Origin: Blasia pusilla
Lineage: Eukaryota
Length of the DNA: 64,000 nt
Reading direction: 5' to 3'
Assembly: GCA_050084515.1 (NCBI GenBank)
Contig: CM114271.1
Location: forward strand, 48,980,001 to 49,044,000
Shown here: positions 17,431-63,756 of the stretch, one piece after another
How positions within the stretch are numbered: position 1 is the stretch's first letter
Layout of the letters: every line of letters begins with the position of its first letter
Position numbers and translations under genes: made by a program
Notes under the pieces: model-generated
What the model saw: only the letters and a program-made list of their open reading frames with translations
Told to the model about the DNA's origin: nothing
Databases searched by the model: none

Positions 17431-17712
17431 AGTCTTGGCATGGCCGAGCAGCGTCGACTTTGGACTATGTCTGTGGGTCTTCCACCCCTTGTGATGAGCT
17501 CGATGGCTACTGGGACGATAGAGGCATCGGCTGGGGGCGAGGAGAGTAGTATTTTGCATCCTTAGAGTAAATGGGATGTAATGGCTGGGCATGTGGAGTT
17601 GGTTGCTCATGCTTGTGGAGGAGTTATTTGCTCAGGTGATGGTGTAGCTAAGGGTGTGCTATCTTGTGAGGGGATTGCGTAGCAGCCAATTGAATCATCC
17701 TCTCTGTCTAGT

Positions 17713-19660: not shown

Positions 19661-19663
19661 GTT

Positions 19664-27099: not shown

Positions 27100-28345
27100 C
27101 CTCATCCTTCCCAGCAAGCATGTGTAGTGCGATATGCCCATGAGGAGTTAGGATATTTTGGAGTAAAGCGTACTTACAGCTTACTCTAGGTTCAGTATTG
27201 GTGGCGCGGCATGCATACTAGGGTACAACAATTTGTGGCTAGATGTATGGTATGTGACAGAGTGCGAGCATCCTTCAATGCTCCCACTCCGCAGTTACAT
27301 CCTTTGCCAATTATGGGTTTAGGTTATCGGTGGAGTTTAGACTTTGCGGGACCTTTGCCATTGACGGGGCGTCATCATAGGTACGTGTTGGTCATGGTGG
27401 AGCATTTCTCCTAGACAAGGCGAGCGAGGGAACAGCTTATGCGTTTCTAGATCGTGTGCTTAGTCACTTTGGTGCACCGGCAGAGGTGTTGACTGACCAG
27501 GGTAGCGAGTTCAGGAGAGAGTTTCAGGCCTTGTGTGATCAAAGGCCGAGATCACCGCACCACGTCCAGAGATCATCTTGAGGCGGATGGGTTGGCGGAG
27601 AGAGTGGTACAGACGGTGAAGAGAGGATTGCGCAAGTATGGCTTGCAGTGGGGACAGTTGAGGGAGTGGGACCTACGGTTTCCATGGTTGGCTATGGGTT
27701 ATCGCTTTAGTCGGCAGGCATCCTTGGCGTCATTTTCACCGTACTTTTTGCTCTTTGGGAGAGAGCCAGATTTACCTGCAGCGATTCGATGTGACATGGC
27801 GGAGGTGTTAGATCTTGATGATCCAGATGTGTGGGTACAAGCATGTTCTCAGAGGGCAGAGGTTTTTCGTAGAGTTATGCCTATGGCCTTTGAGAACTTG
27901 CTATTGCCCAACATAGAGATACATTGAGGTACGCGACCATTCGTGGAGGAGGTTATCGTCCAGGGATTAGGAGGTTTCATCTTGGAGATTACGTGTATTT
28001 ACAGCAGGCGGCATCCACGACGCTAGATGTCACTGCAAGGCGCACGATCCTACGTGTGCGCGAGGCATTACCGACCGGAGTCCTCATGTTGGAGGGACGG
28101 GATGGTATGGTTTGGAAGGATCATGTGCGCAATTGTGCAGCATGTCATCTTCCGAACGTAGATGGGACGGTGGATGTGAGCTTGGCAGTGGTACCTGCAG
28201 GCTTGAGGTGTATGTTGTGCGGATCCGCGAGTGGTGCAACCACCATGCTGGTATGTGATGGTTGTTCTCGAGGGTGGCATATGTCATGTCTGACCCCCCT
28301 CTTGATGTGGTTCCCACGGGACGATGGATATATCCGAGATGTGTA
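27100..28345 (+). pseudogene. DDE integrase with C-terminal PHD finger (copy C)
   Basis: HEELG...CMVC zinc domain; WSLDFAG, LTDQG and ADGLAER catalytic triad; then CMLC-x11-CDGC-x4-HMSC PHD. Confidence 0.9.
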
Positions 28346-28386
28346 TAGGGTAGTAGGTCATGTCAGAGAGATGTGATATTTTCTAT

Positions 28387-28562
28387 CTGGAGTTGGGGGG
28401 ATCCAACTGCCAGCTAGGGGGGCGGTTGTGTGATCTCCATGTATATGTATGAGTTGATTTTTGTACATGTGTGGATCGACCCGTGTGCGGGGAAGATCGG
28501 TGTTGTGTGGTGTAGATGTGACCAGCGATGTATGTTGTGTAGCGATATGTATGCGCACGATA
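28387..28562 (+). repeat. Stem-loop, G-tract (PPT-like) and beta terminal segment of copy C
   Basis: CTGGAGTTGG...CCAACTGCCAG hairpin, AGGGGGG at 28416-28422, terminal CAGCGATGTATGTTGTGTAGCGATATGTATGCGCACGATA shared with copies D and E. Confidence 0.75.
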
Positions 28563-30254
28563 GCATCTACAGTTGGGGTTGTAGGAAGTAGAACTGTAGT
28601 AATAGGTGCGAAAAGGAAGCACAATGCTCTACATAACTGTTTAGTGGAGTACTATGCTGATTTCTCCTACAATACTGGATATCACAGCAAGCATCCGTAT
28701 TCAACAACATTGAAGGAAAGAATGTAGTTGGTAGGTGGATAGACAAACTTGAGGATAATTTCTTGTAGCATGGATCCTTAGGAGTTGTAGAAATGTGGGT
28801 AGAGTCCCTCTTGCAAAGAATCGATTGCCAATGTTGTTAGTTTGAAACGTGCAAAATTGCACCACCTTCAAGTTAAAGTTTTTCTAAAGCCATGGAAGTA
28901 TGTAGAACTGGGTTTTGAACAAGTCACAACATCTGAGTGGCAAAAGGCATGCCACGGAGCGACAATTACTTCTTGAATCAGACAGAAAATGAATTAGAGC
29001 AGCAAATGCCACAAGTTATGGATGCAAAAATGAGTTGGTGAATTAAGATTGCACCCGATAGGAGATCATATTAGCCACCTACGTGGACATGAAATGTTTT
29101 GAAGAGGTGCTCCGACCAATATGCACAGTCTCAACAGTAATCAAAGAGATTAGATGATAGAAACATAGTCTTAGGCTTTACATATTCTTATCTTTTGACC
29201 ATAGACTAGAGGAGGCTCTCAAGTAATCTCTATAATGCTCTAACTTTTGGTTGGTTGGTTTTCGAGGCAACATCAAACGCGGCACAAAGCAACACAAAAG
29301 GCTTGCAAACTACAATCCTAGTAGGAAGATAGACACAAAGAACACTAACCCAGGGCGAGTGCATAAGGATAGAAGAAGGTGCAAGCAATAAAGCTAGAAG
29401 ATACTAACCGCATTCGAGGGATAGCAAAGCAAGAACAACAAACGTGGCAATTGCATTTGAAGGGAATAGCAAAAGGAAGGCATGAACCTAAGTAGGTACG
29501 AGATAAATCTCCGCAAGTGTAAATGAGTGGAAACTAGACGGGGCACCTAGCAAAGAATAGACACGTCGCTAAGCAACGAGATGCTTTTGGGGACTAGAAT
29601 GCTAGTACATAGCAAGAGTCAATCACGTTATCTGAGGGGTGAGGAAGCAGAGTGCGAAATACTAGATTTGAGAGAAGAGAGGAACGAAGACGGAAAAGAA
29701 ATGCTAGTGTAGTATAAGGTGAACCAATCGTGTCTAGGTGAAAACTCTCCACCAACAACATCGAATTCTTCATCACACATGAGTTGAACAATTCCTGCCA
29801 AGATGGATGGAGGATCAATTGAGCGAGAGAGGAGAGGTATGAACGATCATCGACAATACCAAAGAGCACCAAGGGAAGAACGAACGAAGTGGCTCTGCTC
29901 GTGCGAGCAGAGCGTACTTGGGCTAGACATTCAAAACGTTGGCCGATGGTTGGGTCTAGTTGCCATCTCCTCACTATAGGCTAGAGATTGGCGATTATTT
30001 GAGCATTCATTGCAGCGGCCGAAGGGTATCCTCTGCTTAGAACCTTAGGAGACTCCGCATATGACTTGATGACACGTAGTGACAAACATGACATGGAGGG
30101 CCTACCCATGGAGAACGAAAATTTACGAGCCCCAAAGAGGTATATATGAGGAGACTTATTTGTAGAGGCTATTATGAGGATGGTGGATGAGAAGGATTTT
30201 CAATATGGGATGTGTATGCCCATCATATTGACACTTGTGAGATTGTCTTAAGCA

Positions 30255-30390
30255 GACATGTGAAGAAAGGATTGCACAAATACACATTGTAGAGAGGACA
30301 CTTAGGAGATTAAGACCTATAGTTAACATGTTTAGCTGCAGATGATCACTTTTTAGTCAATAGACACCATCGACATCATGTTTCTTGGTC
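30255..30390 (+). mobile_element. Very degenerate integrase remnant of the same family
   Basis: GTGAAGAAAGGATTGCACAAATAC...GAGAGGACACTTAGGAGATT resembles the VKRGLRKYGLQRGHLGDW coding sequence at 27616 and 48356. Confidence 0.5.
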
Positions 30391-31560
30391 AATGAGAGAG
30401 CCAAATAAAGAATATGAAATTAAGAATTCTTTATGAAATTCCATGGTAACCATGGCTCACACTATCCATCCATAGCAAGCCATACATAGTGGAGGACACA
30501 TATATTCCTATCCCAACCAAATGTCACAACATGAGGACAAAACCTTTCAATATAGGGTGCACTCTCCGAAAGACACATCTCATTTGGCCCCCCTAGAGGT
30601 CCAAGTGTTATCTTTAACAACTCCCCATGTGGCACCTATCCAAGAGTGTCACTCATAGACAAAGATGGCATGTCCACATAGATCATTTCAAAATTAGTAT
30701 ATCTCCATGAGCTCCTTAAGTAAGAATTACAAAAGACCCCCTCTAAATCTAGATGAAATCTTATTTACCTCTCCAGATGTCATGTCATAGAATGATTGGC
30801 AGGATTGTGTGAGATTATATTTATGGGTGATGAAATATGAGAAAGAGTCTTTGCCAAACAAATATGAGGCTACAAGAAGTACCCAACTTCGCACCAATTC
30901 AGGTGGTTAAAATTTCAGTGCTTCTTCTTTAACCATCTCATGGGTTGTGGTGTTTAAAAGCTATGCCTAAAAGTTATTAGGTGTGCAGCCCCTCTAAGGC
31001 ATTAAGAGTGGTATTATTGAAGTGAGTAGGGCCCCCATGTCACTAGGGCCAAAGCTTCCTTTAGTTATCTACGAACACTTTCAACAGTCAGAAACACAAT
31101 CGAGTGTGCTGCAGCAGACCAGCAGCTTTTTATTAAAGCCCATCGGAAGTAAGAGCATCTCTGAAATACCCTCTCTTCCATAAAATATGAATGTAGTAAA
31201 ATTTATGCAACCAAACCTATTTTACTTGTTCTCAGCTTATGATCAATTCTAGAACTCTAGATTCAATTATGTACAGCACTATGATTGATCATCAGTGGCA
31301 GTTCTAGCTGAATAAGTGTGAACTAGAAGCAGGATGTTGCATCCATCTTGTGATACACGTCATCCTCTCCTCCTTATCTATGTGGGTGTAAGAGGAGAGG
31401 GGATACTCATAAAGTCAAATCCTTGCTTGTTGACACCCCAATTATCGAGCTACCCCCACCTACCTACACAGTTATTAACAACCTAGAAATTTTGAGCTGA
31501 CCTATTTACATCTACAATTGTACAATGTTCCTCTTGCAAGAGTGTACAGTAGCTTTACAT

Positions 31561-34500
31561 CTATCTAAAATGCGTCTGGAATAGGGTGACCGTTGCTATG
31601 TGCCCGTTCTTCATGACCTATAAGACAGGTAAATAAGGTGGTTAATATCCTGTTCAAAACAGGTTCACTTTTGTTCATCAGTGTCTCACCAAGTTGCTCT
31701 TCTATTGAGATGTTAGAAGAATTGCAAGTAATGTTCGCCAGGAATCACCTCAAGGTTGTAAATCCTCACCTCAAGGGCAATATTTCTGTAACCATAAACA
31801 AAAGTTGGACCGAATGGATTGCTAACAGAACCCTGTGTTTGAATGGCAGCCCGACCGCCATCTCCCAATATCTCCTGGAGAACATGCCAAAGAGATATTA
31901 CAACATGGACTACCTAGATCAAAGAAATCATTTTGGGGTCCTGTTTGCTACTCTCAGAACTCCTGGTTTAAAAATCCTTAACTGGGAAATGTGAAAGTTA
32001 CAGAGAGTCAAATCCTCTTTAGAGCTATTTCTGCAATTGACAGGGACAGTTAAGACAGAAAGTTGCAAAAACAATCTTCTTACTCTCTTCTCATACTGAG
32101 CTAAAGACAACGGAGACGAGCAGAAGCTTAACCAATACCTGTACTTTGGACCACTTAGTAGTGGTCCAAAGTACAGGTCCTGTTTGCTACTCTCAGAACT
32201 CCTGGTTTAAAAATCCTTAACTGGGAAATGTGAAAGTTACAGAGAGTCAAATCCTCTTTAGAGCTATTTCTGCAATTGACAGGGACAGTTAAGACAGAAA
32301 GTTGCAAAAACAATCTTCTTACTCTCTTCTCATACTGAGCTAAAGACAACGGAGACGAGCAGAAGCTTAACCAATACCTGTACTTTGGACCACTTAGTAG
32401 TGGCTGTAATACAATGATGAACAGCATCTCCATTGGATACAATATTGGGTTCATCACCAACTTCACCTGCTATGGAGCACAACTTAGATGCAAATACCTG
32501 CTCTCCAACAATGTCATCACACAAACAATTCTGAAAAGGGCAATGGGTATATCATGTAAGTAATAGGACTCTTGATGTTCAACGTCTCTTACCAACTGGA
32601 CAATGTATGAAGAAATTGCACTTGATGTAGCAGTTGAAATCCGTGTGGCCAGGGAAGTTTGTATGCAGCACAAACTTCTTAATTCGATGACTCTTGAGGT
32701 TGAAGAACCACGAACAATTCAGTAGGTTGTCAGACAGCTACCAACACATGGCCTAGCAAACCCTATGAGCTTCCTTTGGAGAATTATTCAAATCATTTTG
32801 ATCAGGAAAGAAGTATGGACTAGTTCCTTGCAAATCCCCCTGATTGCACCAACAAAACAGCATGCTTCCAAGGTGAAGCATTCCATTACATATGCTAAGT
32901 TCAATTAATAATGTGAATCCATACTGGAACCAGATGAGGTGTCCCAAATGAATAATAGAAGCGCTTAAGAAAACTACCTGGCCATCAAAGAGGATATCCA
33001 AACCACGGGTGAAGTAGTTGTAAAAATAATCTCCACATAAGGCAGTTCGTGGTCTTGGGTCAGATGCAGAATGAATCACCATTGGATCAACCTGAAGGAA
33101 GGCACATGGATTCCATTGAGAGGATTGCTATCAACCATCCCAAAAATATGTTAACAGTAATTTATGGTTGAATGTATTTCTTTAGTAGAGTGCGATATTA
33201 GAAGTCATGAAGATAATCATGGGCATTCAGGACTAAACTCATTTGAAACTTGCTCAAAATGAGTGAGTGATGGTTGTCCAACACGACAGGTTTGATTTGA
33301 AAGATAATCTCAGATCTCTCTTGATAGATTGCTTCAGATTTATCTACACCACAAAACTGATGTCCCATACCTGCTTTTGATGTATGCCATCTGGTCGTCC
33401 AAGCGTTGCCCAAACATCCTGAGAAGTCAAGTTGAGTGTAAGTTATCAACGTCATCAAGAAGTATCTGTTGTACACTTACAAGATACATGACCAGGGAAC
33501 AGGTGAAGTTACCCCAAGGAATTATTTATACTGACCTGTGGAGATGCTCCGAAAGGTAACCGTCGTCCACCACTAAAACACAAATCTTCTGCTAGCTGCG
33601 TAATAAAGAGGAAATCATGTGAAATCTCTAGCTGTCAAGGTAATTAATTTCCCAGCCTTCATCAAGTATAAATGGGCACTAGTAAACTACAGGAAGGCTC
33701 TTGGACAGACATGATGAAATTAAGTACAGTTGATAGTAAGTTATCATAAATATATGTCTTACCATCCCAGAATCAAAGGCCATATTGCCATACGTCTAAA
33801 AGATTTCCATGGAAATCTTTTTAGACGTAGTAAGGAGGACTGTATGAGTTTTTGTGTCCCATGCTCTCTATGTTCAGGTAGTAAGCAGGATCTATAATTT
33901 GTTATCCTGCTTACTACCTGAACATAGAGAGCATGGGACACAAAAACTCATATAGTCCTCCTTAGGAGTGAAACTTCCAAAAGACAAATTTAAAACTCAT
34001 GAAGATTTGCAGCCATACCTTTGCATGCACTTCTTCCATATATGAGCTCCCTGATGCCAGCTGGGGAACTACTGCCTTCTTTAGCAGCCCTCCAACTCCC
34101 ACACCTCCTCCTGCTGTACTATCATAGATGCAAACTCGTGACATTACCGGGGTAGTGCCATCTGGAAACTCCAGCGGTAGCTCTGCTGCTGATCCACGAC
34201 AGACTTGTCATTCCAGTTTCAAATCATTAATTTTAAGTTATTGGGCTACAACTCTACAATCTATAAAGATGCTGGGAAAATACAAAGAATTGGAAACTCG
34301 AATCAGCTCCAACCTTCTCGATGCTGGCAGCATTCTGTGTACTGAGCAGGAATAGGAAATGCAAAGGATAGGCCCTGTCACAAAAATAAAAAATAAATAT
34401 TTAGTGAAGTGGCATCAAAGCACGCAAATCAAATGCTGGTTGAACAACAGAAGACTGCAATCACTTCAAAACCCAATGAATGGACATGAGGTCTGACCTT

Positions 34501-36656
34501 CAAGTTACTTTCTCATTAACTCCACACACTACAGTTTCTTGTCACTCTGCTACAGGGACAGAATGGTGGTAGGCCCTGAAAACGTACCGGGTAAAAAAGA
34601 GTGTAGATGGAACGCTTTACATCATATACACCAGGGAATGTTGGCCCAAAGAGTGCATACACAGCTACAAAAGTGGCAGCAATGCTTGGACCCCTGCCAG
34701 TTTCCCGAATGTATTGAGTTTGAGTGAACAGATCACATGCATATTCTAGTGTTCTAGACTACAAAGCTTCTGCAAACAGGCTTCAAATCATATTTACAAT
34801 CATTGTTATAAAGTAAAACTGCATAAAGGGACAGCTGACAGAACTAGGTTGCTGTGACCAAACCTCACCCAATAGATGATGTGGCATAACGCAGCTGCAA
34901 ACGCTGCACATCAAAAACTTCTATTATGCGCAATCTCTGCAGAGACCCCCAAAAAATCCTCTGATCAGACCTCTTTCTGCAAAATCCTGAACCTAAGCCT
35001 AGATCCTCATCTGTAAAGGCCTCCATTCTATGCATTTCCAAGGGGTACCAATTGCTTATAGAAAAGTATAACAATTTGCTAATGTTAGCACAGGCAAATA
35101 ACAATAATAAGAATAATTTCTTTGAGTTTCCCGATTGCCAAAACGAATTCTGCAGACTTTGCAAGTGATTAATATTACTCAGTGTTAATCACAAAGAGAA
35201 GAGATACCTGAGAGCGTGGTTCAAACCGTAGATGAAACCCATGTTCAGGAAAGCTTATTACAAGATCATAACGCAAGGGTTCCTGCAGGATTCATTTAAT
35301 GAGTTCACGAGGCTTATGATGGCTGTAGCACCATACTTTTCATGAATCAAAGTACTGTCTGTTTGATCTCCTGACACAGCCAAATGAACCTGCAGCTGAC
35401 CCCAATATCCATAAGCTACTGGACTTCATTTACTTTGGGATATGGTCCCAAGAATCAGCAACAGAGTGCTTTAAGTTTCATGCTCCAGCAAGGGCATCTC
35501 AAGTTTTCCAAAACCTGTATGTGAACAAGTTTACAGAAGTTGTCCTTGAACCTGTGTTGGCAGAGTTGAAAAACTCACCTCGTCATTGTATTTGATCTGC
35601 ACTACTTCAAAGACAGACCGGTGTTGCTCCACGTGGGCTAGTGCCTCGCACACAGGCATCCCTGTTATCATTCGTTACATCGCAATTAGCTAACAAGTCT
35701 AGTTTTAGGCTTGCATGTAAGCCGCACCATCAGGGTTCTTGGTAAAATCTAGATTAAGTACCTACAAGGCTCATACCAAGTAGTTATTTCAAGTTTTATA
35801 ATTCAACGTTCATGCCCACCTTCAGGATTCTCCGAAAGACTCAGACTGGATCGTCTCAGAAGTACTTTAAAAGAGCCATTTAGGGTTTCCCAGAAGGCGA
35901 AGTTCCAATGATTTTTAACAGCCAGTTAAATTAGTTTCAGCCTCACAGAAGGCTTGTCAGGTAAACGATCAGAAAACGACGTCTCGATTTTCCTGTCACT
36001 CTACCCCGTCCAGCAAACTTGTGACTGACTTTACTACCTCACCGACAACTATCATATGACGATACCCATACCAATCCAATGGGAGAAAGTCGATTCAGTA
36101 CAACTTCTTGCTGTCCTTCGTTGAATTAAAGCGCACGTCATCCAACACAGACATAAATCTCTCTTACAATAAGGCGTCACCCATCCAAATCCACCTTTGC
36201 AGTAGCCAGGCATCAAAATTAGTGAAAGGAAATTCTGAGTTTCAATTTCGTCTCCTCTCCTCATCTGTCTTAGACAAAGGAACGCGAAAATTTGCAGGAA
36301 CTCGGCCACATCAAACATCAAACTTCAAGTGCCCTGCCACTCAATCTTAACGCGTTACTACTAGAGCCTCAAATGGATCCATACAGAAGGCGAATGCCAC
36401 ATCTTCCAGACATCGACCGCAATCTGATAACTAGGGATCTGTACAATCCCCATAAAATCCATACTCCCGGACGAATCGTCCCAACTCAAAAAGAAATCAT
36501 CCCACCCCGGCAGAGATTGACGCCAGAAATTCCCCGCACGAAAAAACCATCATCCAAATTTCCCAATTCTATCCCAAACCACGAGAGCGTTAGCTCACCC
36601 AGTGTGAAGGAGCCCAAACCAGAGCCCGGTCGTAGATCCAGCGTCAGGCCCGACAT
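31561..36656 (-). CDS. PHAF1-like: UPF0183 / PHAF1 (C16orf70)-family protein, about 14 exons: 36656-36599, 35661-35579, 35282-35208, 34936-34869, 34693-34588, 34374-34314, ~34185-34019, 33595-33536, 33418-33371, 33091-32978, 32692-32593, ~32470-32378, 31874-31770, 31617-31561
   Basis: Manual splicing gives LDLRPGSGLGSFTLGMPVCEA..., FPEHGFHLRFEPRSQRLRIIEVFD, LFGPTFPG, LPLEFPDGTTPV, MVIHSASDPRPRTALCGDYFYNYFTRGLDILFDG, KKFVLHTNFPGH, GPTFVYGY, VMKNGHIATVTLF. This matches the plant UPF0183 family as I recall it (Arabidopsis At3g51130). All introns GT-AG; the start codon and the acceptors of exons 7 and 12 are uncertain. Confidence 0.9.
31937..32403. repeat. 228-bp direct tandem duplication (31937-32164 and 32176-32403) with a fold-back junction
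   Basis: Copies appear identical, period 239 bp; the junction forms a 19-bp perfect inverted repeat at 32137-32178. Confidence 0.95.
33791..33964. repeat. Intronic long inverted repeat (61-bp arms, 12-nt loop) plus an adjacent ~39-bp near-palindrome
   Basis: 33831-33891 is the reverse complement of 33904-33964 with one mismatch. 33791-33829 reads TACGTCTAAAAGATTTCCATGGAAATCTTTTTAGACGTA. Confidence 0.95.
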
Positions 36657-39600
36657 GTTCCCTAGTCCCACACAGCAAATCTCTTGTCCTCCTGTAATCT
36701 CTGCCGCCCCACCGTCCCCTCTGCCTCCTCTTGTGTCCCTCACCCTCTCCTCCCGACGCCAGCCCAATTATTTCTCCCTCCGTTCCCCGTCCTCTCCTTC
36801 CTTCCTTCCTTCCTTCTCTCTCTCCTCCTCCTCTTCGTCGTCGCTATTCACACGATGAAACGCTAAACCGGAAGCGTGGCGAGCCGGAATAGGCGTGAGA
36901 ACGAAAAGAGTCACCGTATGAACAGGAAACTCTCGCGCTGGCGAAGCACGAACGAACGAGCATACATTGGAACTGGCTGCAAAGATCAAACCCCACCTCC
37001 ATACGCCTGTCTGAAAGGCACCCTCTTCCACAAACCAACCGAACTCGCTGGGCGATAAACCCAGAATTGAACAATCCAACCGAACACGTCTTCCGAGCAA
37101 TGTCCGGGGAGATCCGGGGTTACGAGTAATCCCCGGGAAAAACTAAAATTCCCGTCTCGTGGAAACTGATGCCGGTGCAGATCAGGTGGTTTCCGTTAAC
37201 GCCGGCGTCTCTCACATGCCGGGATTGTGCCGATCGCCGGCAAGGATTGGATGGAAAGTAGTCGCGTACGGGGGAATACGGGGGTTAACGGCCGTTTAGA
37301 CGTAACCAGGAACCGGAAATCAACTGGGAAGGATTCCACTTGCCGGTCCTGCTAGGTGATTGGTTAGGGTATGGACGATGGCATGGGGGGCAAAGAGTCG
37401 TAGATCTGCAATAGGGCTTACCCTAAGCCATACGATGGAAGACCGGACGGGTAGGGTTTAGAGAGGGCGGCTGGGTTCAAGTGGAGAGAGGACGAGAAGG
37501 GTATGTGGGTGGAGACCTCACCATAGAGGGCTATCCCTCTCATTCTCGGATCTATGAGGGCCTTATTGCATGGGCTAGCGTCACTCATTGACGCTGGCCG
37601 GTGAGCGACGCCGTTAGACCGGATCTGCTTCATCCTACGGTCCCAAATGTGTTTCTTCTAATCCGAATCGCAAGTATTTGACGGGATCGCAACGTTTCAG
37701 TGTGACTATTTTCAGAGGTATGGTCATTCACGCGCGAGGTGTTTTAGTTTACACCCCGAATTACGTCCGGACTGAGGGCCAGAGAGGGCACCAGAGCGAG
37801 TAGCCGGTCTAGGTGGGCCTAGAGATCGTGCACCAAGTGGTCCTGTTGGGGGACGAGGAGATGGAGTTGCCCGACAGGGTGGTGGAGCTGCCCATGGAGG
37901 GGGTAGAGTCCCACCACCTAGACACATCGAGGGAGATGCCAGGCGTGAGGCTAGGATGGCTGCTTAGATACAACAACTACAAGAGTAGATTGCCGCTATG
38001 GCATTGAGGTTACCCGATGGCGGATCCGTGGCATTCACATGATATGGAGCAGCCACAGATATGGAGGATCCTGGTTGGATGTGCAGGGTTGCCCAGATGG
38101 AGGCCGCCGCAATTGTGACGCATGGAGCAGCCATAGAGTTGGATCCACAGCGAGGGGAAGCGAGGAAACATATCAAGCTTCCTTAGTCTTTCACATTGTC
38201 CTAGGCGATGAGGACCCCATTGATGGGTCCTGATTAGAGTTCCCGGAGAGTTGGTGATGTTATTGGTGTGTAGGCACGGAGGGTAATGAGAGAAACGAGT
38301 GCGATGACTCCTATTGCTGATGCTCAAGAGGAGCATGTGTCGAGTACGATATCGGGGGCGGCCACGATGGTGTACCGTGCTTCGCTATTTTCTGTTTTCG
38401 ATATTATGACATTGGGAGGTACGCCCGGCGAGGTGTTCCGGCTGGCCGCTACATTATGTGGGCGTGGAGTTGGAGTTCCTGCATCACATTCAGAGGTGAT
38501 TGTAGAGGAGGTGATGGACCTACCCTTGGAGCGGATGCTCAGGCCGTCCGCGTCAAATTCATGGCAGGCTACGACTGCTAGGATGGCGGAGATGTCCGCT
38601 AGACCCACGATAGAGCGTGCCATGGCTTCTCCTGGTGTTGTGTTGTTGGATAACCAGGGAGAGGTCTTCCAGTTGGTAAGTCCAAGAGGTAGAGCTTTTA
38701 GTCCGCAGCGCGTCTTGTTGGATTCAGGAGCGCAACCCCTGATGTTGGGGTAAGCGTCATTCAGAGGATTGGTCTTGACAAGAGCCGATGTGGAGCGTTG
38801 TCCATTCCGGATACAGACATCCTTGGGTGGAGCAAGTACCACATAGTATATCACCCGACACGAGGTCTTGGTGAGGATTCGCCTGAGATATCCTACAGAT
38901 GAGTCCGTGGTGCGAGCCAAGGCGATAGTGATTGATGTAGCGTCCTACAACGTCTTCGTTGGTGGAGCAGTGTTTTCCCTGGATTATTGGGAGGAGTCAA
39001 CGTCCTATAGACAAAGATGGCAGTTAGGTGATGGGCGCCTTATCTCATCATCTATTCGATTCACAAGTGCAATGATCGAGCGACGGCCAAGAGAGATGGT
39101 GACCTTTGCAGCATTTAGCAATGCCATCACTTGGCCTAGTGATTTGATTGAGGGACATGTCCATGTAGAGGATACTCCCATACTTGAAATTTCTATGGAG
39201 AGGAGTGTCATGGTACCTGCATCAGTCCGTGGAGAAGAGGTGCCGCTTTGGGGCTCGATTGAGGAGCTTCGACGCTTAGCCATTGAGCATGTGCAGACCG
39301 CGTGGAGCTAGACGTTTACACGAGAGTGTGACGAGTCAAAGGAACCCCAAGTAGTCATGTCTTGGGTCACGTGATGGACCTGAACCGCTTGACATGGATT
39401 TTCAGCTTAGGAGTAGCTGAGCAGCGTCATTTGAGGATGTGACAAATCACAACAGTTGCGTTGGTGAGCCCTATGCCTACCGAGACGGTTGAGGCAGTGG
39501 CTGGGGGCAAGACCTGAGGAGATTGACACTCCAAAGGTGATCGGGAGAGACTCCCTTGGACTTCTTGGGATGTTTTGCAGGTACGCCAAGGGATGATAGC

Positions 39601-40473
39601 CACACCATCGAGCGTGGTTCTGGGTACTACACATGGAGATCCAATTTTGCAATTGGCTGTAGGGGAGCAGACAAGTTTTGTTGTCCGAGACGGGGTTGCA
39701 CCATAGCAACCACCGACACCCGCACTAGAGAGTCCTACTGTAGTCACAATGGAGACTTGGGAGCCAAATATGGGCCCTAAGTTGACAAGAGGAGAGCGGC
39801 GTCAGATACACCAGTTCCTTAGGAGTTATAGGAGCTATTTTGCATTTAGTATGCATGATTTGTGTACGTTGAAGGGTCCAAGGATCCGCATTGAGTTTTC
39901 GAGTGACATATCGATGCCCGTCAAGAAGGATGTGATTGATGGATAGGCGGATGTGTGGAGATTACCGACGTATCAATTAGCAGACGAAGTCTGATGGGTA
40001 TGCCATGCCTATTCCTAAGGAGATCTTTGATGCTATTGGGAATGCAAAGGTCTTCAGTTCGTTAGATCTTCGAGCTGGATATAATCAACTGCCTATCAGA
40101 TTGGAGGACATGCAGAAGACAACATTTTGGGGCATCGATCCTTACAAGAAGGATTGCTTATACGAATGGCGGTTGTTACCATTTGGGTTAAAGAACGCCC
40201 GGGCTGAGTTTCAGAGGGTCATGATAGGATCTTGGCAAGTCTAGAGTTTGCTAGATGTTATATTGATGACATTGTAGTCTTTAGCGTCATGGTTGAGGAG
40301 CATGGGCGACATCTAGAGGAGGTATTTTGACGATTGCAGTTACATGGGCTGAAGCTACATCCAGGCAAGTGCAAGTTCTTCTACAACCAGATTGAGTACT
40401 TGGGTCATACGATATACCGAGGTGACCTTGGTGTGCAGTAGATAAAGGTAGAGGCTATTTCACACATTCCACG

Positions 40474-41231
40474 TGTCGTGCGCATACACATCGCTACACA
40501 ACATACATCGCTGTAACCGAACACACACACAAACATGCACGATCCCATGCTAACTCATGGCATCCAAACACAGAGACGAGAATTACCAAAATATCTCCAA
40601 TATAGTAAGATCCAATCTCTCTCTATACCATCTCACACCATAGCTCTCAAAGGTGTGCACTCTCTTTCATGTCAAACCAAACCCACTCTCCTAATGAGAG
40701 GCTTGGCTTACATTCACAAGGCAAGGGACTGTAGCTCCGCCATCTCATGCCAAGAGGTTCAACAAAGAAAGAATGAGCTCTCAAGCTCTCTCTCCTTTAG
40801 GTATACCCCTCCCCTCTCCCAAGCTCTCTCCATGGTAACCTATTCTCCCAAGTCACCTCCTTGGCTCTTGACCTGATGTAGGAGGTCAAGGGCCACTTAC
40901 CAAAAATACAATGGTGATCACATACTCAAATGGTACTTACCTAAAATAGTAAGTTTCTCAATATGACTCCAAATGAGCCGAACGTGCTCTCTCAGGTTTC
41001 CCGGGGCCTGAACAGGTCATCCTCAACCTACTGAGGCTCTCCTCCACTACTCACGAAGGCGCTCTACTAGATCTCACCGATCTATCCTAAAAGACGTGAC
41101 AGTTGTCGTGCACATACATATCGCTACACAACATATATCACTGTCACCGCACACACACACAAACACGCACGATCCCATGCTAACTCATGGCATCCAAACA
41201 CAGATGCGAGAAGTACCAAAATATCTCCAAT
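40474..41231 (-). repeat. 3' terminal beta1-alpha2-beta2 block of copy D (beta1 41231-41104, alpha2 41101-40602, beta2 40601-40474)
   Basis: Two ~128-bp direct repeats flank a ~500-bp segment that is repeated at 46366-46868. The beta1/alpha2 junction reads GACA-AC-TGTCAC; a G-tract precedes beta1. Confidence 0.92.
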
Positions 41232-44200
41232 CGTCCCCCTAGCTAGTGGTTAGGTCCCTCTAACTCCAGATAGCCATTTATCCCTATCTACCACGACATA
41301 CATCTCTAGAATGCTAAGAGTAGAAAGGCCGGGTGCTCATGTGGCCCCATCGTTAGTCGCCTTCATGTCATCCATGTCACAGAAATAGTCGGAATCGAAA
41401 CTTGCCTAGTATCTCCTCTATGTACATCAGGGACACATCCATCGTCCTCGAGGAACCTTAGTGAGAGGTGGCGTCAGACATGCCATATGCCAACCTCTTG
41501 AACATCCATCATAGACTAACATCGTGGCGCACCACAAGCAGAACCACACAACATACAACGCAAGCGTGCAGGAACTACTGGTGAGCTCGGATCTACTGTA
41601 CAATCAATGTTAGGAAGGTGACATGGCACACAATTACGCATATGGTCCTTCCATACCATACCATCGCGTCCCTCTAGCAAGAGAACATCGGATGGCCAAA
41701 CGTCACGCACTCTGAGGATAGTGCGCACTTCAGTCACATCCAACATCTTCGGTGCCGTCTGCTACAAGTAGGCATAATGTCCTTGATGAAACCTCCGGAT
41801 AGTTGGTCGATAACCACCACCCCGAATAGTTGCATACCTCAACGTATCCCAATGTTGCGCAATCGCCAAGTTCTCAAATGCCATGGGCATCACTCTCTGA
41901 AACAACTCCGCCCTCTGAGAACATGCTCGCATCCATACATCTCGATTATCAAGGTCCAACACCTCATCAGCATCCCGACGAATGGCCGTAGATAAATCTG
42001 GCTCTCGGCCATAAAGTAACAAGTACGGTGAAAAAGACGCTAAGGATGCTTGCCTGCTGAATCTGTATCCCATCGCCAACCATGGCAACTGGAGGTCCCA
42101 ATCTCCTATGTGACCTCTCTACAAGCCATACTTGCGTAAACCCCTCTTCATCGTATGCACAAATCTCTCCGCTAATCCATCTGCCTCGGGATGATCTCGC
42201 AAAGTCGTGCGGTGGTCGATCAACGCTTGATCACACAAGGCCTAGAACTCACTGCGAAACTCGATACCCTACTCTGTCAACACCTCAGCCGGTGCACCAT
42301 AATGACTCAGCACTCTATCAAGGAAGGCATAAGCTACTCCCTCACTCGCTTTGTCAGGAAATGCAACCAACTCGATCCACTTCAAGACTTGCTCGACCAT
42401 CACCAACACATAACAATGTGACGCTCCGTCAAAGGCAAAGGTCGGGCAGTCGTGGAGTCAGAGCATTGAATGATGCTTGGACCCGATCACACACCATGCA
42501 TCTGGCAACAAACTGCTGAACGTCAGTCTGCATGCCTCGCCAGCAATACTGAATCTAGAGCAAGTTGTACGTCCGCTTCACCCCAAAGTGATCTAACTCC
42601 TCGTGGGCATGCTACACAACTCATGCTCTCTGTAAAGGATGCGGCACTATGCGTACTCTACCATCCTCCCAAACCCTGAAAATATGTGTTCCCTCCCAAC
42701 GGAATCGTCTTGCCCGCTGTAGGATCCGATCCCGCTCTCTGGCACCCACGGTGCTCGCAACGCTACCAGTACGAAGGTACTCCAAGACTACTCCATCATC
42801 ATGAATATCTCGGCCACCTATGGTCTCCTCACTGGCCTCGGGATCCAAGGACTCTCCAGTAGACCTCGCCATCGAAGTCTCCACACTCTGGCTTTCCATA
42901 GCCAACATGCCTAAATAGGCTGACGCGTGCCATCCTGGCACTGACTCCTCATCACTCTCTCCATGCCATCGAGCTCTAGTCGCATCTCGCTGACTCGGGC
43001 ATGGGTTACAACTCAACCCATCTGCATCCTGGTTGAGCGTCCCAAGTCTATGTACCACCTCAAAATCATACTCCTGCAACAATGGAGCCCATCTCGCAAG
43101 CTTCCCTGTAAGCTTGTTGGACTCCATCAACCATTGAAGTGGTTGATGATCAGTGATGATTGTAAAGGGGTTACTGAATAAGTAACACCTGAAATGTGTG
43201 ACAGCCCACAGTGCAGCCAATCACTCACCCTCATACGAGCTATACTTCGCCTCTACACCATTGTTCGAGTGGCTAGCGTAAGCCACCACGAACTCTCTAC
43301 ACTCATCATCATGCTGGGTGAGCACCGCTCCAAGGCCCAACATGCTCCAATCTGTGTGCAACTGGAAAGGACGTCCCCTGATCGATCTCCTCAAGATGGG
43401 CGCAGACGTCAACTTGTCCTTGAGCAATTGAAATGCTCAAGGACAAGTTGTGATCCACTTATGATCCACCTTGGTCAGCAAGGTCAGCGGCTTCACAATC
43501 GAATTGAATCCCTTGACGTACCGCCGATAGAAGTTCGCCAATCCCATGAATGCGCAAACACGACTCACATCTATGGGGCGTGGAATGCATGAGATAGCCT
43601 CTACCTTTGTCTGCTGAACACCAAGGCCCCCTGGGTATATCGTATGACCCAAGTACTCAATCTGGTCGTAGAAGAACTTGCACTTGCGTGGATGTAGCTT
43701 CGGCCCATGTAATTGCAATCGTCGAAATACTTCTTCTAGATGTCGCTCATGCTCCTCAACCGTGGCGCTAAAGACTACGATGTCATTAATATAACACTTA
43801 TCAAAATCCAGACCAACCAAGATCCTATCCATGACACTCTGAAAATCAGCCGGGGCATTCTTTAACCCAAATGGTAACAACCGCCACTGATACAAATAAT
43901 CCTTCCCGTGAGGATAGATGCCCCAAAATGCCATCTTCTGCCTGTCCTCCAATCTGATAGGCAACTGATGGTATCCGGCTTGCAAATCCATGAATTGAAG
44001 ACCTTTGCGTGACCAATCGCATCAAAGATCTCCTCAAGGGTGGGCATGGCATACCTATCGGACTTCGTCTGCCGATTGATAGGTCGGTAATCCCCACACA
44101 TCCGTCTATCCGTCTAGTTGCCATGCACATCCTTCTTGGTAGGCATGACAGTGGCAGATGCATACTCCCCATGCGACATCTCCACTAGTCTTGCTCCAAC

Positions 44201-44789
44201 CAAGTCCTGGCTCCTACTGTGAATCAGAGCCCTCTCCATATCACTGTACCTGTAGGGTCGTCGGAAGATCGGCGTATCACTCGACAACTCAATGCGGATC
44301 CCCGGTCCCTTCAGCGTACCCAAATACTCCATGCTAAACACAAAGCAACTCCTATAATTCCTGAGGAATTGATGTATTCGGCGCCGCTCTCCTCTTGTCA
44401 ACTTAGGGCCCATATCTCGCTCCCAAGTCTCCATCGTGACTATGGTAGGACTCTCCGGTGGGGATATCGATGGTTGCTATGGTGCAACCCTGTCTCGAAC
44501 AACAACACTCGGCCGCTCTCCTACAGCAAAATGCAAACTCTGATCTTCTCCTTGTGTAGTGCTCGGAACCACGCACGATGCTGTGGCTATCATCTCCTGA
44601 CGTACTTGCAAAAAATCCTAAGAAGTCCAAGGGTGTCTCTCTTGATCTCCCCTGGTGTGTAGATCTCCTCGGGTCTCGCCCCCAGCCATTGCCTCCATTG
44701 TCTTGGTAGGCATGGGGCTCACCAACGCAACCGCTGTGATCTGTTGCGATCTCATCCGATGCTGCTCAGCCACTCCCAAGCTGAAGATC

Positions 44790-45740
44790 CATCTCAAACA
44801 GTTCAGGTCCATTGCCTCACCTAAGACATGGCGTCGTGAGGCCTCTAATACAGACGGTACTGCCGTCACTCCTATGGGAAATCCCATCGTCCGCTCTCTC
44901 TGGTCGGCGTTGGGCTCCACCAACCTCTGAAACTAGTCATCCCAAACCAAGCAAGGACCGGCCTCCTTGTATGCATAGGAAGCGGGAAAACTCACAAACG
45001 TGGGAAAGGTTGCCCGCGGCCTGCCTACCCTTTTGACCACAGTCAACGGTGGTTGATCATCGTGCCACATTGCATGTGAGCGATGATTTGGATCCAGAAT
45101 GGAATCCACTAACAAATGGGATGGGCACTCCACTCTCGCATGCGCCCTCCGTAACACCATATGGGGCACCAAGTTGGTCCACCATAGACGCGGGCGATGG
45201 GTTCTAGAACCTACACTCGCCGCATCCAAGAACACTGCTGGGCCAATCCAGGCACGCACCTGATGAGCACTCGTCACCACCCGTGATCTGGAGTCTCCTA
45301 AGATTGGCACATTCTCCAGAATGTAGGCTAGAGAACGAGAATGGTGCTGCTGCAATTGCCGTAAGATCCTCAACATCTCCCAAAACAACGTGGATCGAGT
45401 GTCAAACAACCCGCTGCCTCGTTTAGCACTCGGTTGGCCTTGATATGGCCAACCGGCAATGACCAAATCAATGGTGCCTAACCGCTCTAAGTCGTGCGCC
45501 CCCAACAACAAAATATCCCTCGGTAGGGAACTCTGGTACCCCTGTACTGCGGACGTAGACCATAAGTCGGGAAAACGTAGGCGTAATTGCGCCACATGTC
45601 ATAGTAGATACGCCTCGCAACATCAACACTCTCTACATATAGGTACTGCTGCACTCGCACTCCTGCCTGCGAAACAACAGCTAACCCGGTGCTAACCCTT
45701 CCAAAGAGATCCAACACTCGAATACCCTCCTCCGGGATAC
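44790..45740 (-). pseudogene. DNMT3-like domain of copy D (catalytic PC mutated to PY)
   Basis: IRVLDLFGRVSTG, DLVIAGWPYQG, YILENVP, SRTHRPRLWWTNL, RERTMGFP, RRHVLGEAMDL. Confidence 0.92.
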
Positions 45741-46365
45741 ACCACACAATGGGTCTTTGGTGAGTCTCGGAGGTAGAGCTTTTAGTCCGCAGCGCGTCTT
45801 GTTGGATTCAGGAGCGCAACCCCTAATGTTGGGGAAAGCGTCATTCATAGGATTGGGCTTGACGAGAGCCAATGTGGAGCGTTGTCCATTCCGGACACAG
45901 ACATCCTTGGGTGGAATGAGAACCACATAGTATATCACCCGACAGGAGGTCGTGGTGAGGATTCGCCTGGGACATCCTACAGATAAGTCCGTGGTGCGAG
46001 CCAAGGCGATAGTGACTGAAGAGTCCTACGACGTCTTGGTTGGTGGAGCACTATTATACCCAATGGGGTTTTCCTTGGATTACTGGGAGGAGTCAGCGTC
46101 CTACAGACCAAGATGGCAGTCAGGTGATGGGCGCCTTAGTTCATTATCCGTTCGATTCACATGTGCAGTGATCGAGCGACGGCTAGGAGAGATGGCGACC
46201 TTAGCAGCATTTAGCGGTGCCATTACTTGGCCTAGTGATTTGATTGAAGGACATGTCCATGCAGAGGATACTCCCGTTCTTGACATTTCTATGGAGAGGA
46301 GTGTTATGGTAGCCGCATCATTCCGTGGAGGAGAGGTGCCGTGGTGGGGCACCTCTCCTCTTTGT

Positions 46366-46868
46366 AAAGTAAGATCCAATCTCTCTCTACACCATAGCTC
46401 TCAAAGGTGTGCACTCTCTCTCATGTCAAAACAAACCCACTCTCCTAATGAGAGGCTTGGTTTACACTCACAAGGCAAGGGACCATAGCTCCGCCGCCTC
46501 ATGCCAAGAGGTTCAACAACGAGAGAATGAGCTTTCAAGCTCTCTCTCCTTTAGGTATACCCCTCCCCTCTCCCAAGCTCTCTCCATTGTAACCTATTCT
46601 CCCAAGTCACCTCCTTGGCTCTTAACATGATGTAGGAGGTCAAGGGCCACTTACCAAAAATAGAATGGTGATCACATACTCAAAATGGTAATGACCTAAA
46701 ATAGTTAGTTGCTCAATATGGCTCCAAATGAGCCGAAACGAAGGGGAAACCTGCTCTCTCATGTTTCTCGGGGCCTCAAAAGGTCATTCTCAACCTACTG
46801 AGGCTGTCTTCCACTACTCACGAAGGCGCTCTACTAGATCTCACCGATCTATACTAAAAGACGTGACA
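46366..46868 (-). repeat. 5' terminal alpha1 repeat of copy D (not followed by beta)
   Basis: High identity to 40602-41101. It continues into ACAAAGAG (start of the self-complementary PBS) rather than ATTGGAGATATT. Confidence 0.9.
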
Positions 46869-49242
46869 CATGCCCTATAGATGTGAGTCGAGTTCGTGCA
46901 TTCATGGGATTAGCAAACTTCTATCGACGGTACGCCAAGGGTTTCAGCTCGATTGCGGCGCCGCTGACCTTGCTGACCAAGGTGGATTAGGAGTGGCACT
47001 AGGGGGATGAGAAGGAGAGAGCATTTTAGATGCTCAAGGAAAGATTGACATCCGCGCCCATATTGAGGATACCGATCAGGGGCCATCCTTTCCAGTTGCA
47101 TATCGATTGGAGCATGTTGGAGCTTGGAGTTGTGCTCACCGAGCATGACGATGATGGTAGAGAGTTCGTGGTGGCTTACGCTAGTCACTCAAAAAATGCT
47201 GTAGAGGCAAAGTATAGCTCGTATGAGGGTGAGTGCTTGGCTAAAGTGTGGGTTGTCGCACATTTTAGATGTCATCTATTCGGCAATCCCTTTACCGTCA
47301 TTACTCATCATTAGCCACTTAAGTGGTTGATGGAGTCTGAAAAGCTTACAGGGAAGCTTGCGAGGTGGGCTCTTTTGTTGTAGGAGTATAACTTCTCGGT
47401 GGTGCATAGACTTGGGACGCTCAACCAAGATGTAAATGGTTTGAGCCGTAATCCATGCCCGAGTCAGCGAGATGTGACTGGAGCTCGTTGGCATAGTGAG
47501 AGTGATGAGGAGTTGGTGCCCAGATGGGATGCGTGAGCCTATTTGGGCTTGTAGGCTATGGAGAGCCAGATTTCTGAGACTTCGATGGCGAGGTCTGATG
47601 GAGAGTCCTTAGATCCAGAGGCCGGTGAGGAGACAACAGGTAGTCCTAGACATTCACGACGATGGAGTGGTCTTGGAGTACCTGCGTACTGGCAGCATCG
47701 CGAGTACAATGGGTGCTAGAGAGCAAGATCGGATCCTACAGCGAGCCAGACGGTTCCAGTGGGAGGGGACACATGTATTGCAAGTATAGGAGGATGGTAG
47801 AGTGCGTGTAGTGCCTCATCCTTTGTAGAGAGCACGTTTGGTGCGTCATGCCCATGAGGAGTTGGGTCATTTTGGAGTGAAGCGGACTTACAGTTTGCTC
47901 TAGATTTAGTATTGGTGGCAAGGCATGCAGACTGAAGTTCAGTAGTTTGTTGCCAGGTGCATGGTGTGTGATCAAGTTCGAGCATCATTCAATGCTCCAA
48001 CTCCACAGTTGCATCCACTTCCAATCATGGATTTAGGTTATAGATGGAGTTTGGATTTTGCAAGACCTTTGTCTTTGACAGAGCGCCATAGTCGCTATGT
48101 GTTGGTGATGGTTAAGCAATTCTCGAAGTGGATAGAGTTGGTTGCATTGCTTGACAAAGCAAGTTAGGGAGTAGCGTATGCCTTCCTTGATCGGGTTTTG
48201 AATCATTACGGCGCACTAGATGAGGTGTTGACAGACCAGGATACACAGTTCCATGAGAGTTTCATGCCGTGTATGATCAGACACTGATTCATCATCGCAC
48301 TACTTCGCGAGATCATCTAGAGGCAGATGGACTAGTGGAGCGGGTTGTGCAAATGGTGAAGAGAGGACTACGCAAGTATGGCTTGTAGAGAGGTCACCTA
48401 GGAGATTGGTACCTCCAATTTCCGTGGTTGGCGATGGGATAGAGATTCAGCAAGCAGGCATCCTTAGCGTCTTTCTCACTATACTTGCTTTTGTATGGCC
48501 GAGAGCCAGATTTACCTATGGCCATTCATCGAGATGTTGGTGAGGTGTTGAACCTTGATAACCTTGATGTATGGATGAGAGCATGTTCTCAGAGGGCTGA
48601 GTTGTTTTGGAGAGTAATGCCCATGGCGTTTGAGAACTTGGCGATTGCGCAACATTGGGATACATTGAGGTATGCGACTATTCAGAGGTTTTATTAGGAA
48701 GACTATGTCTACTTGCAGCACACGACATCCATGACCTTGGATGTCACTGTAGGGCGCACCACCTTGAGAGTGCGTGAGGTTTTGCCATCGGGTGTTCTCT
48801 TATTGGAGGGACGCAATGGTATGGTTTGGAAGGACCATGTGCGTAACTATGCGCCATGTCATCTTCCAAACATTGACAATATAGTTGATCCGAGCTTAGC
48901 AATAGTTCCTACTGGCTTGCGATGTATGTTGTGTGGTTTTGCGCGTGGTGCAGCCACTATACGAGTTTGTGATGGATGTTTGAGAGGATGGTATATGGCA
49001 TGTTTGACGCCACCTCTCACTAGGGTTCCTCAAGGACGATGGATGTGTCCCAAATGTACATAGCATAGGTAGTTCTTCATTCTAACTTGTGTCTGTGATA
49101 TGGATGACAAGAAGGCAACTAACAATGGGGCCACATGAGCACCCGACCTTCTTGCTCTTAACGTCCGAGAGATGTATGTCATGGTAGGTAGAGATAGATG
49201 GCTATCTGGAGTTAGAGGGATCTAACCACCAACTAGGGGGTG

Positions 49243-60571: not shown

Positions 60572-63756
<3,185 letters not shown>

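Follow-up and report, generated by a model that had tools for sequence, protein, structure and literature searches.

The window analysed here, a 64,000-nucleotide stretch of the Blasia pusilla genome (assembly GCA_050084515.1, contig CM114271.1, positions 48,980,001 to 49,044,000 of the forward strand), holds between 8.8 and 50 kb at least five decayed copies of a single retrotransposon family, as delimited by self-comparison and by tblastn with intact relatives. The element is a Ty3/gypsy retrotransposon that encodes Gag, protease (PR) and a DNMT3-like DNA methyltransferase (DNMT) upstream of a TAG codon, and reverse transcriptase (RT), RNase H, integrase (IN) and a PHD finger downstream of it. 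Its assignment to Ty3/gypsy rests on the Pol order PR-RT-RNase H-IN with an H2C2 and DDE (rve) integrase. Pfam searches of the window's open reading frames (ORFs) and of read-through frames recovered RT, RNase H, integrase H2C2, C5-DNA methylase and PHD, and CCHC knuckles and a protease motif are found in the frame-1 translation of copy B. The subject of this study is the PHD finger, which an earlier reading of the DNA letters (the sequence-only reading) had placed at the end of the integrase in three copies and interpreted as a histone reader. The features are collected in Table 1.

Table 1. Coordinates of the PHD fingers, associated domains, stop codons and element copies in the window.
Feature	Position	Strand	Evidence or remarks
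PHD finger, copy E	48923..49060	+	Pfam PF00628, PDB phmmer, DNA alignment, AlphaFold, Foldseek
PHD finger, copy B ('C' in the sequence-only reading)	28209..28345	+	translation, Pfam, DNA alignment
PHD finger, copy D	41421..41557	-	translation, DNA alignment
Integrase C-terminal five-strand beta-barrel, copy E	48698..48922	+	AlphaFold; same ORF as the finger
DNMT3-like C5 methyltransferase, copy B	24106..25185	+	PF00145, 32.7 bits
DNMT3-like domain, copy D	44612..45598	-	PF00145, 26.2 bits
Conserved TAG between DNMT and RT, copy B	25423..25425	+	CAA CCA follows
Homologous TAG, copy A2	17680-17682	+	tblastn with intact relatives
Homologous TAG, copy D	44479-44477	-	tblastn with intact relatives
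Copy A1	8841..11771	+	older, strongly decayed fragment of a related element; 25-50% identity to Marchantia ORF1 protein P0208
Copy A2	13794..19662	+	Gag to integrase zinc-binding domain; 20 in-frame stops
Copy B	21486..28348	+	full coding length, Gag to PHD; 26 in-frame stops, several frameshifts
Copy F	37701..40474	+	part of Gag, protease, DNMT remnant, RT to residue 347 of P0197
Copy D	40478..46868	-	DNMT, RT, RNase H, IN, PHD; 13 in-frame stops
Copy E	46874..50011	+	RT from residue 348 of P0197, RNase H, integrase, PHD; 16 in-frame stops

The finger motif is present at all three places indicated by the sequence-only reading, but only copy E encodes a whole finger in one frame. There the zinc-ligand His is replaced by Tyr (TAT, 48992-48994), where copies B and D have CAT in a DNA alignment of the three copies. 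The finger of copy B reads properly only as far as 'CLT', after which a one-nucleotide deletion near 28295 shifts the frame; the seventh ligand, read in this new frame, has changed from Cys to Tyr. In copy D one nucleotide is deleted near 41529, Tyr has replaced Cys as the third ligand and the last CxxC is interrupted by a TGA, and the frame that had been given for this copy contains stops. The full C4HC3 ligand set, which most of the best family representatives keep, is thus found in none of the three window copies as they stand. In the alignment no zinc ligand is damaged in more than one of the three copies, and all three fingers are followed directly by a TAG codon (49061-49063 in E, 28346-28348 in B and 41420-41418 in D), which indicates that the ancestral element ended in an intact finger. 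The occurrence of the motif in the window copies is far beyond chance. All three fingers are nonetheless in a pseudogene state and have no function of their own, and every copy of the element is dead, with 13-26 in-frame stops each in addition to frameshifts.

The sequence-only reading had taken the motif for a PHD finger, and the Pfam search it had proposed bears this out in two copies. PF00628, for which the curated gathering cut-off is 24 bits, matches the 121-residue ORF of copy E (48698-49060) with 30.3 bits (E 4.2e-7) and the copy B ORF at 27894-28373 with 28.4 bits, in the latter over profile positions 1-30 only; intact relatives score 36-45 bits. Comparison of the 46-residue finger with the PDB by phmmer yielded 110 distinct chains at E ≤ 1, and the best 60 of these 110 all contain PHD fingers. 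The best single-finger matches are KDM5B PHD1 (2mny, E 2.9e-11) and KDM5A PHD1 (7klo, 4.9e-11), followed by KAT6A, PHF21A/BHC80, DPF2/3, ATXR5, AIRE, CHD4, BAZ2A/B and UHRF1.

Structure prediction agrees with this identification. The AlphaFold model of the 121-residue ORF of copy E, built on a 36-sequence alignment, has a mean predicted local distance difference test score (pLDDT) of 85.7 and comprises a five-strand barrel (strands at residues 3-6, 22-28, 33-37, 43-47 and 51-53, pLDDT mostly 87-92) followed by the predicted finger (residues 76-120, pLDDT 85-92). The 75 residues that precede the finger in the same ORF therefore correspond to the C-terminal beta-barrel of the integrase, in accordance with the earlier placement of the finger after the integrase core. 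Foldseek superposes the predicted finger on the PHD2 fingers of DPF2 and DPF3 with a root-mean-square deviation (rmsd) of 0.6 Å over 45-46 columns at 40-41% identity; the rmsd to the fingers of DPF2, DPF3, ATXR5 and BHC80 spans 0.6-1.6 Å, and BAZ2A/B, UHRF1 and AIRE are superposed as well. The nearest solved relatives are accordingly KDM5 PHD1, DPF PHD2, BAZ2A/B, UHRF1, BHC80 and AIRE, consistent with the BAZ/KDM5-PHD1/UHRF1-like class named at the outset, and all of these nearest relatives, as identified by similarity, read the unmodified N terminus of histone H3. A shared Tudor-PHD cassette was also considered and was rejected: the two-domain Foldseek matches to PHF1 and UHRF1 are too loose (rmsd 12-15 Å, template modelling score 0.33-0.38).

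Intact relatives carry the finger in frame with the integrase. A 206-residue query comprising the integrase C terminus and the finger (one stop read as X) was searched against 1.84 billion representative proteins and gave 3416 matches at E ≤ 1e-3, 693 at E ≤ 1e-10 and 90 at E ≤ 1e-30. The majority of the best 150 of the 3416 cover the query from end to end in a single stretch, and rve is followed by PHD in six of six relatives from this search that were scanned with Pfam. Two relatives, P0004 (1073 residues) and P0197 (1083 residues, a complete ORF from a Coleochaete scutata transcriptome), encode RT-RNase H-H2C2-rve-PHD in one ORF, and P0142, a single ORF of 2710 residues, reads Gag-PR-DNMT-RT-RNase H-IN-PHD, the order of the window element. 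Two intact metagenome loci, L010 and L013, consist of an ORF1 with protease and DNMT (1369 residues in L010), one TAG and a 1047-residue ORF2 that ends in the PHD finger. Across these five relatives the in-frame fusion that the sequence-only reading had supposed is confirmed, and the architecture of the intact relatives, as read from their translations, runs through the integrase barrel and one canonical C4HC3 finger to the stop codon. No Chromo family was detected by Pfam in the window ORFs (E ≤ 0.01) or in 13 full or partial relatives (E ≤ 1e-3), in keeping with the claim that the integrase ends in a PHD finger rather than a chromodomain. The finger thus occupies the integrase C terminus, where chromoviruses carry their chromodomain.

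The nearest named proteins come from the liverwort Marchantia polymorpha, with 69% identity over the integrase end and 62% over the DNMT, and Marchantia gene models account for 13 of 28 matches in the DNMT search. The next named relatives are from Calypogeia fissa, Sphagnum fallax and Coleochaete scutata, and the wider family of proteins with rve and PHD includes Haematococcus, Pleodorina and Chromochloris. In a profile search, PF00628 is present in 120 of 120 of the matches listed, and PF00145 in about 20 of these 120 as well (counted from a precomputed Pfam column). Several Marchantia polymorpha models annotated as 'PHD-type domain-containing protein' (142-239 residues) fall into the P0186 90%-identity cluster together with the integrase end and finger of the element, and are probably fragments of this transposon. 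In the wider-family proteins scanned, another 100-470 residues without a Pfam match extend beyond the finger, and a few members carry a G-patch (PF01585) among the matches listed.

The finger is conserved and under selection. A complete C4HC3 set is found in 137 of the 150 best representatives (37-72% identity to the query), and 9 of 20 near relatives matched the C4HC3 pattern. The ligand His is invariant in the 122 representatives with KDM5-like spacing, and conservation is at least 90% in each of the eight ligand columns of the 36-sequence alignment. Between L010 and L013, the ratio of nonsynonymous to synonymous substitution rates (dN/dS) is 0.044 for the 45 finger codons, 0.036 for the 150 codons before them and 0.059 for the whole of ORF2, figures that are rough since the dS of this pair, approximately 1.2-1.6, is near saturation; between L013 and L033 the value is 0.124 for the finger versus 0.078 for the whole overlap. 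By this codon-level comparison the finger is under purifying selection and clearly constrained like the rest of Pol. It could still be supposed that the finger is a relic, or a chance pattern of cysteines, without function in the family, given that all three window copies are broken and that the majority of the 80 related metagenome loci are decayed. We consider this very improbable: the Pfam, PDB and fold matches are significant, the ligands are kept in most of the best representatives, dN/dS stays at 0.04-0.12 in intact pairs, and the stop right after the finger is common to the three copies. Conservation refutes such a reading for the family, and it is true only in that the window copies are dead.

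On balance, we favour the explanation that this is an element of the Gypsy-DNMT3 kind whose integrase-borne finger tethers the intasome to the H3 N terminus. After readthrough and processing, the finger would remain on the integrase and would hold the intasome on nucleosomes by gripping the free N terminus of H3, and the landing of new copies would be biased in consequence, as it is by the chromodomain in chromoviruses. None of the window copies is still able to do any of this. The contacts that might be involved can be judged from the KDM5B PHD1-H3 structure, in which, according to the description of the interface in PMC4225485, Ala1 lies in a pocket formed by L325, P347, G349 and W351, while Arg2 pairs with D328, Thr3 with E321 and Lys4 with D308. 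We mapped these contacts onto the finger through the phmmer alignment, in which D308 corresponds to position -4 and E321 to position +9 from the first Cys. The P-x-G-x-W pocket is VPQGRW in copy E, and P-x-G-x-[WF] occurs in 98 of the 122 representatives and in eight of nine near relatives; the Met-Leu-Leu first strand, of which one hydrophobic residue completes the Ala1 pocket in readers of the KDM5 PHD1 type, is conserved. The Asp after the third Cys, equivalent to KDM5B D328, is found as CDGC in copies E and B, in 113 of the 122 representatives and in eight of nine near relatives. The Ala1 pocket and the Arg2 Asp are the best-conserved non-ligand positions in the family, and we predict that Ala1 would be anchored in the former and Arg2 bound by the latter. 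In fold class the finger belongs, by sequence and predicted structure, with the readers of unmodified H3 tails, as the sequence-only reading had said, and binding of the free H3 N terminus by the finger is plausible and reasonable to expect.

Several points weigh against this reading. Position -4 (KDM5B D308, contacting K4) is Thr in copy E and Ala in copy B and in seven of nine near relatives; position +9 (KDM5B E321, contacting T3) is Ala in E, in B and in seven of nine near relatives; and all nine near relatives have 0-1 acidic residues in the loop which, in classic K4me0 readers, is acidic. With the acidic K4 and T3 contacts absent in the clade, the ligand may differ. An intact finger in an ORF of at least 300 residues is present in no more than 4 of the 80 related metagenome loci, and the near-saturated dS limits what the selection estimates can carry. 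That the finger stays on the integrase after protease cleavage is something we infer. The cluster of copies, furthermore, has an ordinary gene on either side, each recognised by Pfam: at 3738-5940 on the minus strand the exons of fructose-1,6-bisphosphatase (FBPase), and at 61909-63753 on the plus strand tubulin. The window therefore gives no sign of heterochromatin targeting.

The changed loop also bears on the identity of the partner. The finger might bind a non-histone partner, be it an H3-like N terminus of a host protein, nucleic acid or the element's own polyprotein, and might serve in nuclear import, in particle assembly or in regulating the integrase, not in the choice of site. Complexes of the UHRF1 PHD finger with PAF15 and Stella peptides are among the fold matches, the clade has a neutral or basic loop at the place where KDM5B contacts K4 and T3, and the integrase barrel together with the finger resembles Tudor-PHD cassettes, if only loosely (rmsd 12-15 Å). 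Set against this, the two features that best mark recognition of the H3 N terminus in general, the Ala1 pocket and the Arg2 Asp, are those most conserved beside the ligands, and the position at the integrase C terminus parallels that of known targeting domains, so that a non-histone partner appears improbable to us. For tethering to H3, the explanation that we favour, the absence of the acidic K4 and T3 contacts in the clade means that what the finger reads may be the Ala1-Arg2 end in its unmodified state and not K4me0 as such.

In this respect the sequence-only reading has to be qualified. It had suggested that the element possibly targets chromatin in which H3 Lys4 is unmethylated (H3K4me0). 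KDM5B PHD1 contacts K4 and T3 through acidic residues that the window copies and most near relatives do not have; at the level of residues, discrimination of K4 methylation is not supported in this branch. The wider, mostly green-algal family differs, with at least two acidic loop residues in 83 of the 122 representatives, Asp at -3 in 58 of 122 and Glu at +9 in 49 of 122.

The second component of the earlier proposal was the methyltransferase. It is of DNMT3 type, its PDB matches at E ≤ 1e-3 being DNMT3A, 3B or 3C in 29 of 29 cases, and PF00145 is present in copies B and D and in ORF1 of L010. Visual inspection of copy B shows motifs I, IV (PCQ), VI (ENV) and X, with seven stops within 24049-25293. 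In window copies A2, B and D and, at the homologous site, in intact L010 (5083-5085), L013 (4661-4663) and L026, the DNMT and RT parts are separated by a TAG with CAA or CAG as the next codon. The UAG-CAA at the TAG of the element resembles UAG-CAA-UYA, which we take to be the leaky-stop context of tobamoviruses. The single in-frame TAG looks like a programmed leaky stop, an arrangement which suggests that Gag-PR-DNMT would be the abundant product and that RT-RNase H-IN-PHD would be made by readthrough. In the wider, mostly green-algal family the DNMT lies between RNase H and integrase, not before RT (P0030, P0037, P0048, P0226 and others); among the 150 best representatives, RT-DNMT-IN-PHD is found in 23 and DNMT-RT-IN-PHD in one.

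This arrangement qualifies two related suggestions of the sequence-only reading. Its view that one element holds both a chromatin reader and a methylation writer is correct in that both domains are present, but they lie on separate translation products. Its analogy to the ADD domain of DNMT3 enzymes holds in that a DNMT3-type domain and a PHD-type finger occur together, but the likeness is loose, as the finger is on the integrase and the DNMT is in another ORF, upstream of the TAG. With the two domains on separate products, intramolecular coupling of the ADD kind is unlikely; cooperation in trans is conceivable. The further suggestion that the element might pre-mark itself is speculative.

In a strict form of the sequence-only proposal, the finger would be an outright H3K4me0 reader that acts in trans with the DNMT3-like enzyme by an ADD-like logic; the element would then insert where H3K4 is unmethylated, and its own DNA or that around it would become methylated. 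In keeping with this, the nearest solved fingers read H3K4me0 or unmodified H3; DNMT and PHD occur together in copies B and D, in intact L010 and in 35 of the 150 best representatives, besides the roughly one-sixth of listed profile matches that have PF00145; the wider family is often acidic at -3 and +9; and KnitGypsy-Dnmt3 copies in Klebsormidium are reported to bear CHH and CHG methylation (PMC5890265, main text). The acidic K4 and T3 contacts are absent in the present clade, however, the DNMT is encoded by ORF1 and is separated by RT, RNase H and integrase from the finger, which comes last in the readthrough product, and in many relatives with the finger no DNMT is detectable in the same ORF (many of these being fragments). 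We therefore regard strict H3K4me0 reading in trans as doubtful, with some weight left to it. A more elaborate proposal, speculative and in our estimate improbable, is a self-contained read-write module: the PHD finger would dock the intasome on H3 tails unmodified at Arg2 and Lys4, the DNMT3-type enzyme of ORF1, made at Gag-like levels, would methylate the cDNA or the landing site, and in the bryophyte branch the reader, with the loss of its acidic K4 and T3 residues, would have been retuned to a different state of the tail. If this were true, the element would choose and then set its own chromatin state.

Beyond the fingers, the copies form a cluster, in which a span of 42 kb contains five members of one family. 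Such clustering could reflect self-targeting or simply the abundance of the family. Copy A2 is truncated before the integrase core and hence lacks the PHD finger. Copies F and E are the 5' and 3' halves of one copy, joined at residues 347/348 of P0197, and copy E includes a 3' terminal region of approximately 950 bp. Copy D is nested in reverse orientation in the RT of F/E (40475-46873 within 37701-50011); self-comparison shows that it has LTR-like direct repeats (LTR, long terminal repeat) of approximately 480 bp at 40631-41101 and 46384-46868, which are 91% identical, and no convincing target-site duplication is readable at the junctions of D with F/E. No direct repeat was found between the flanks of copy B, and intact locus L010 (1-9317) contains no terminal direct repeats of at least 40 nucleotides. 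A 39-nucleotide terminal motif of copy B (region 28346-28562) is found again, at two places, in copy E's 3' region. A protease-coding fragment at 45757-46380 runs on the plus strand, opposite to the rest of copy D, between its DNMT and its upstream repeat, which suggests an internal inversion or a further fragment.

The base composition of the window also varies. The observed/expected ratio of CpG is 0.37-0.71 in the element copies versus 0.80 in the FBPase region and 1.03 in the tubulin region, with CpA and TpG in excess, a pattern that fits decay in which methylated cytosines are deaminated. The plus-strand copies have a strongly positive GC skew on their coding strand (+0.16 to +0.31 at 10001-30000 and 38001-40000), and the skew is negative over copy D, which lies on the minus strand. 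In the AT-richer stretch between copies there is a 228-bp tandem duplication with 100% identity (31937-32164 and 32176-32403).

The intact relatives and the signature of selection indicate that streptophyte Gypsy-DNMT3 elements, and with them a much larger green-algal family, keep a PHD finger at the integrase end, and that one element pairs a chromatin reader with a DNA-methylation writer. Marchantia, a tractable plant with published chromatin maps, makes two questions testable: whether a histone-tail reader other than a chromodomain chooses landing sites, and whether the element's own methyltransferase acts there. Gypsy elements with DNMT3 (PMC5890265) and retrotransposons bearing PHD fingers (PMC6673714, PMC8557442, PMC9940879 and 10.1101/2021.11.30.470311) are already in print, to go by the passages of these sources that deal with them. 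The interest is thus moderate, that of a well-founded lead for work in Marchantia and not of a new kind of system.

Among known proteins, KDM5 PHD1 shares with the finger the spacing C-x2-C-x11-C-x2-C-x4-H-x2-C; as in readers of that type, an aromatic residue precedes the His, an Asp follows the third Cys and the 'PPL..VP.G.W.CP.C' stretch is present. The C4HC3 cross-brace fold is common to KDM5A/B PHD1, the PHD2 fingers of DPF2, DPF3 and MOZ, BAZ2A/B, UHRF1, BHC80 and AIRE PHD1. Unlike KDM5B PHD1, the finger sits on a transposon integrase and has Ala or Thr at the equivalents of D308 and E321. The ADD of DNMT3 enzymes is a composite module of a GATA-like and a PHD finger that lies directly beside the catalytic domain. 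The element likewise holds both a catalytic domain of DNMT3 type and a zinc finger of PHD type, but its finger is a single plain PHD on the integrase, in another ORF and approximately 1000 residues downstream of the DNMT, and no ADD-type match is found among the best 60 of the 110 PDB sequence matches of the finger.

PHD fingers on mobile elements are themselves well documented. Many retrotransposons are stated to encode them, and they are described as widespread (PMC6673714); in Chlamydomonas transposons, including a Gypsy element, PHD is listed as a common accessory domain (PMC8557442, PMC9940879); PHD and Chromo are given as the commonest chromatin domains fused to transposon proteins (10.1101/2021.11.30.470311); and a PHD finger has been noted on a Gypsy-integrase-like DNA transposase (PMC2836005). 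For the methyltransferase, the closest precedent is KnitGypsy-Dnmt3, described in Klebsormidium (de Mendoza et al. 2018, PMC5890265). Both elements combine a Gypsy-type Pol with a DNMT3-type methyltransferase in the coding region in a streptophyte host. They differ in that the host of the present element, which is likened to KnitGypsy-Dnmt3 by description, is nearest to liverworts. A DIRS-like repeat layout is reported for the K. nitens elements; no terminal direct repeats were found around copy B or in L010. No Klebsormidium protein is among the named matches of the integrase-end, DNMT and profile searches. The terms PHD, finger, H3K4 and histone reader have no occurrence in the main text and figure legends of PMC5890265. 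The streptophyte 'Gypsy-DNMT3' is also named in 10.64898/2026.05.21.726589, where elements with DAM, DNMT and chromodomain are presented as new and the portions consulted carry no mention of PHD. Within the literature searched, no text was found that brings together Klebsormidium, Gypsy, DNMT3 and PHD, and no discussion was found of the pairing of DNMT3 with a PHD reader in one element. The dinoflagellate DNMT-bearing retrotransposons were rejected as a match, the Symbiodinium elements being of the long interspersed nuclear element (LINE) and DIRS types and the nearest named relatives here being liverworts, a moss and a charophyte. The element belongs with the published streptophyte 'Gypsy-DNMT3' kind and is a new example of it, not a new kind.

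With respect to the finger, REM1, reportedly described by Perez-Alegre and co-workers in 2005, is said to be a green-algal Gypsy element with a PHD finger in Pol. A second green-algal Gypsy, Gypsy-7a_cRei, has its PHD before INT in a figure legend of PMC9940879. Like both of these, likened by description, the present element is a green-lineage Ty3/gypsy retrotransposon with a PHD finger in Pol; unlike in Gypsy-7a_cRei, its finger follows the integrase, and no DNMT is mentioned for either. The closest functional parallel may be that with the chromoviruses, Ty3/gypsy elements such as MAGGY that carry a chromodomain at the integrase C terminus (Gao et al. 2008, as given in citing papers). In both cases a chromatin reader stands at the very end of the integrase, after the C-terminal barrel, and its presumed role is to tether the intasome to marked nucleosomes. 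The difference lies in the reader, which here is a PHD finger, with no Chromo family detected, whose likely ligand is the H3 N terminus and not H3K9me.

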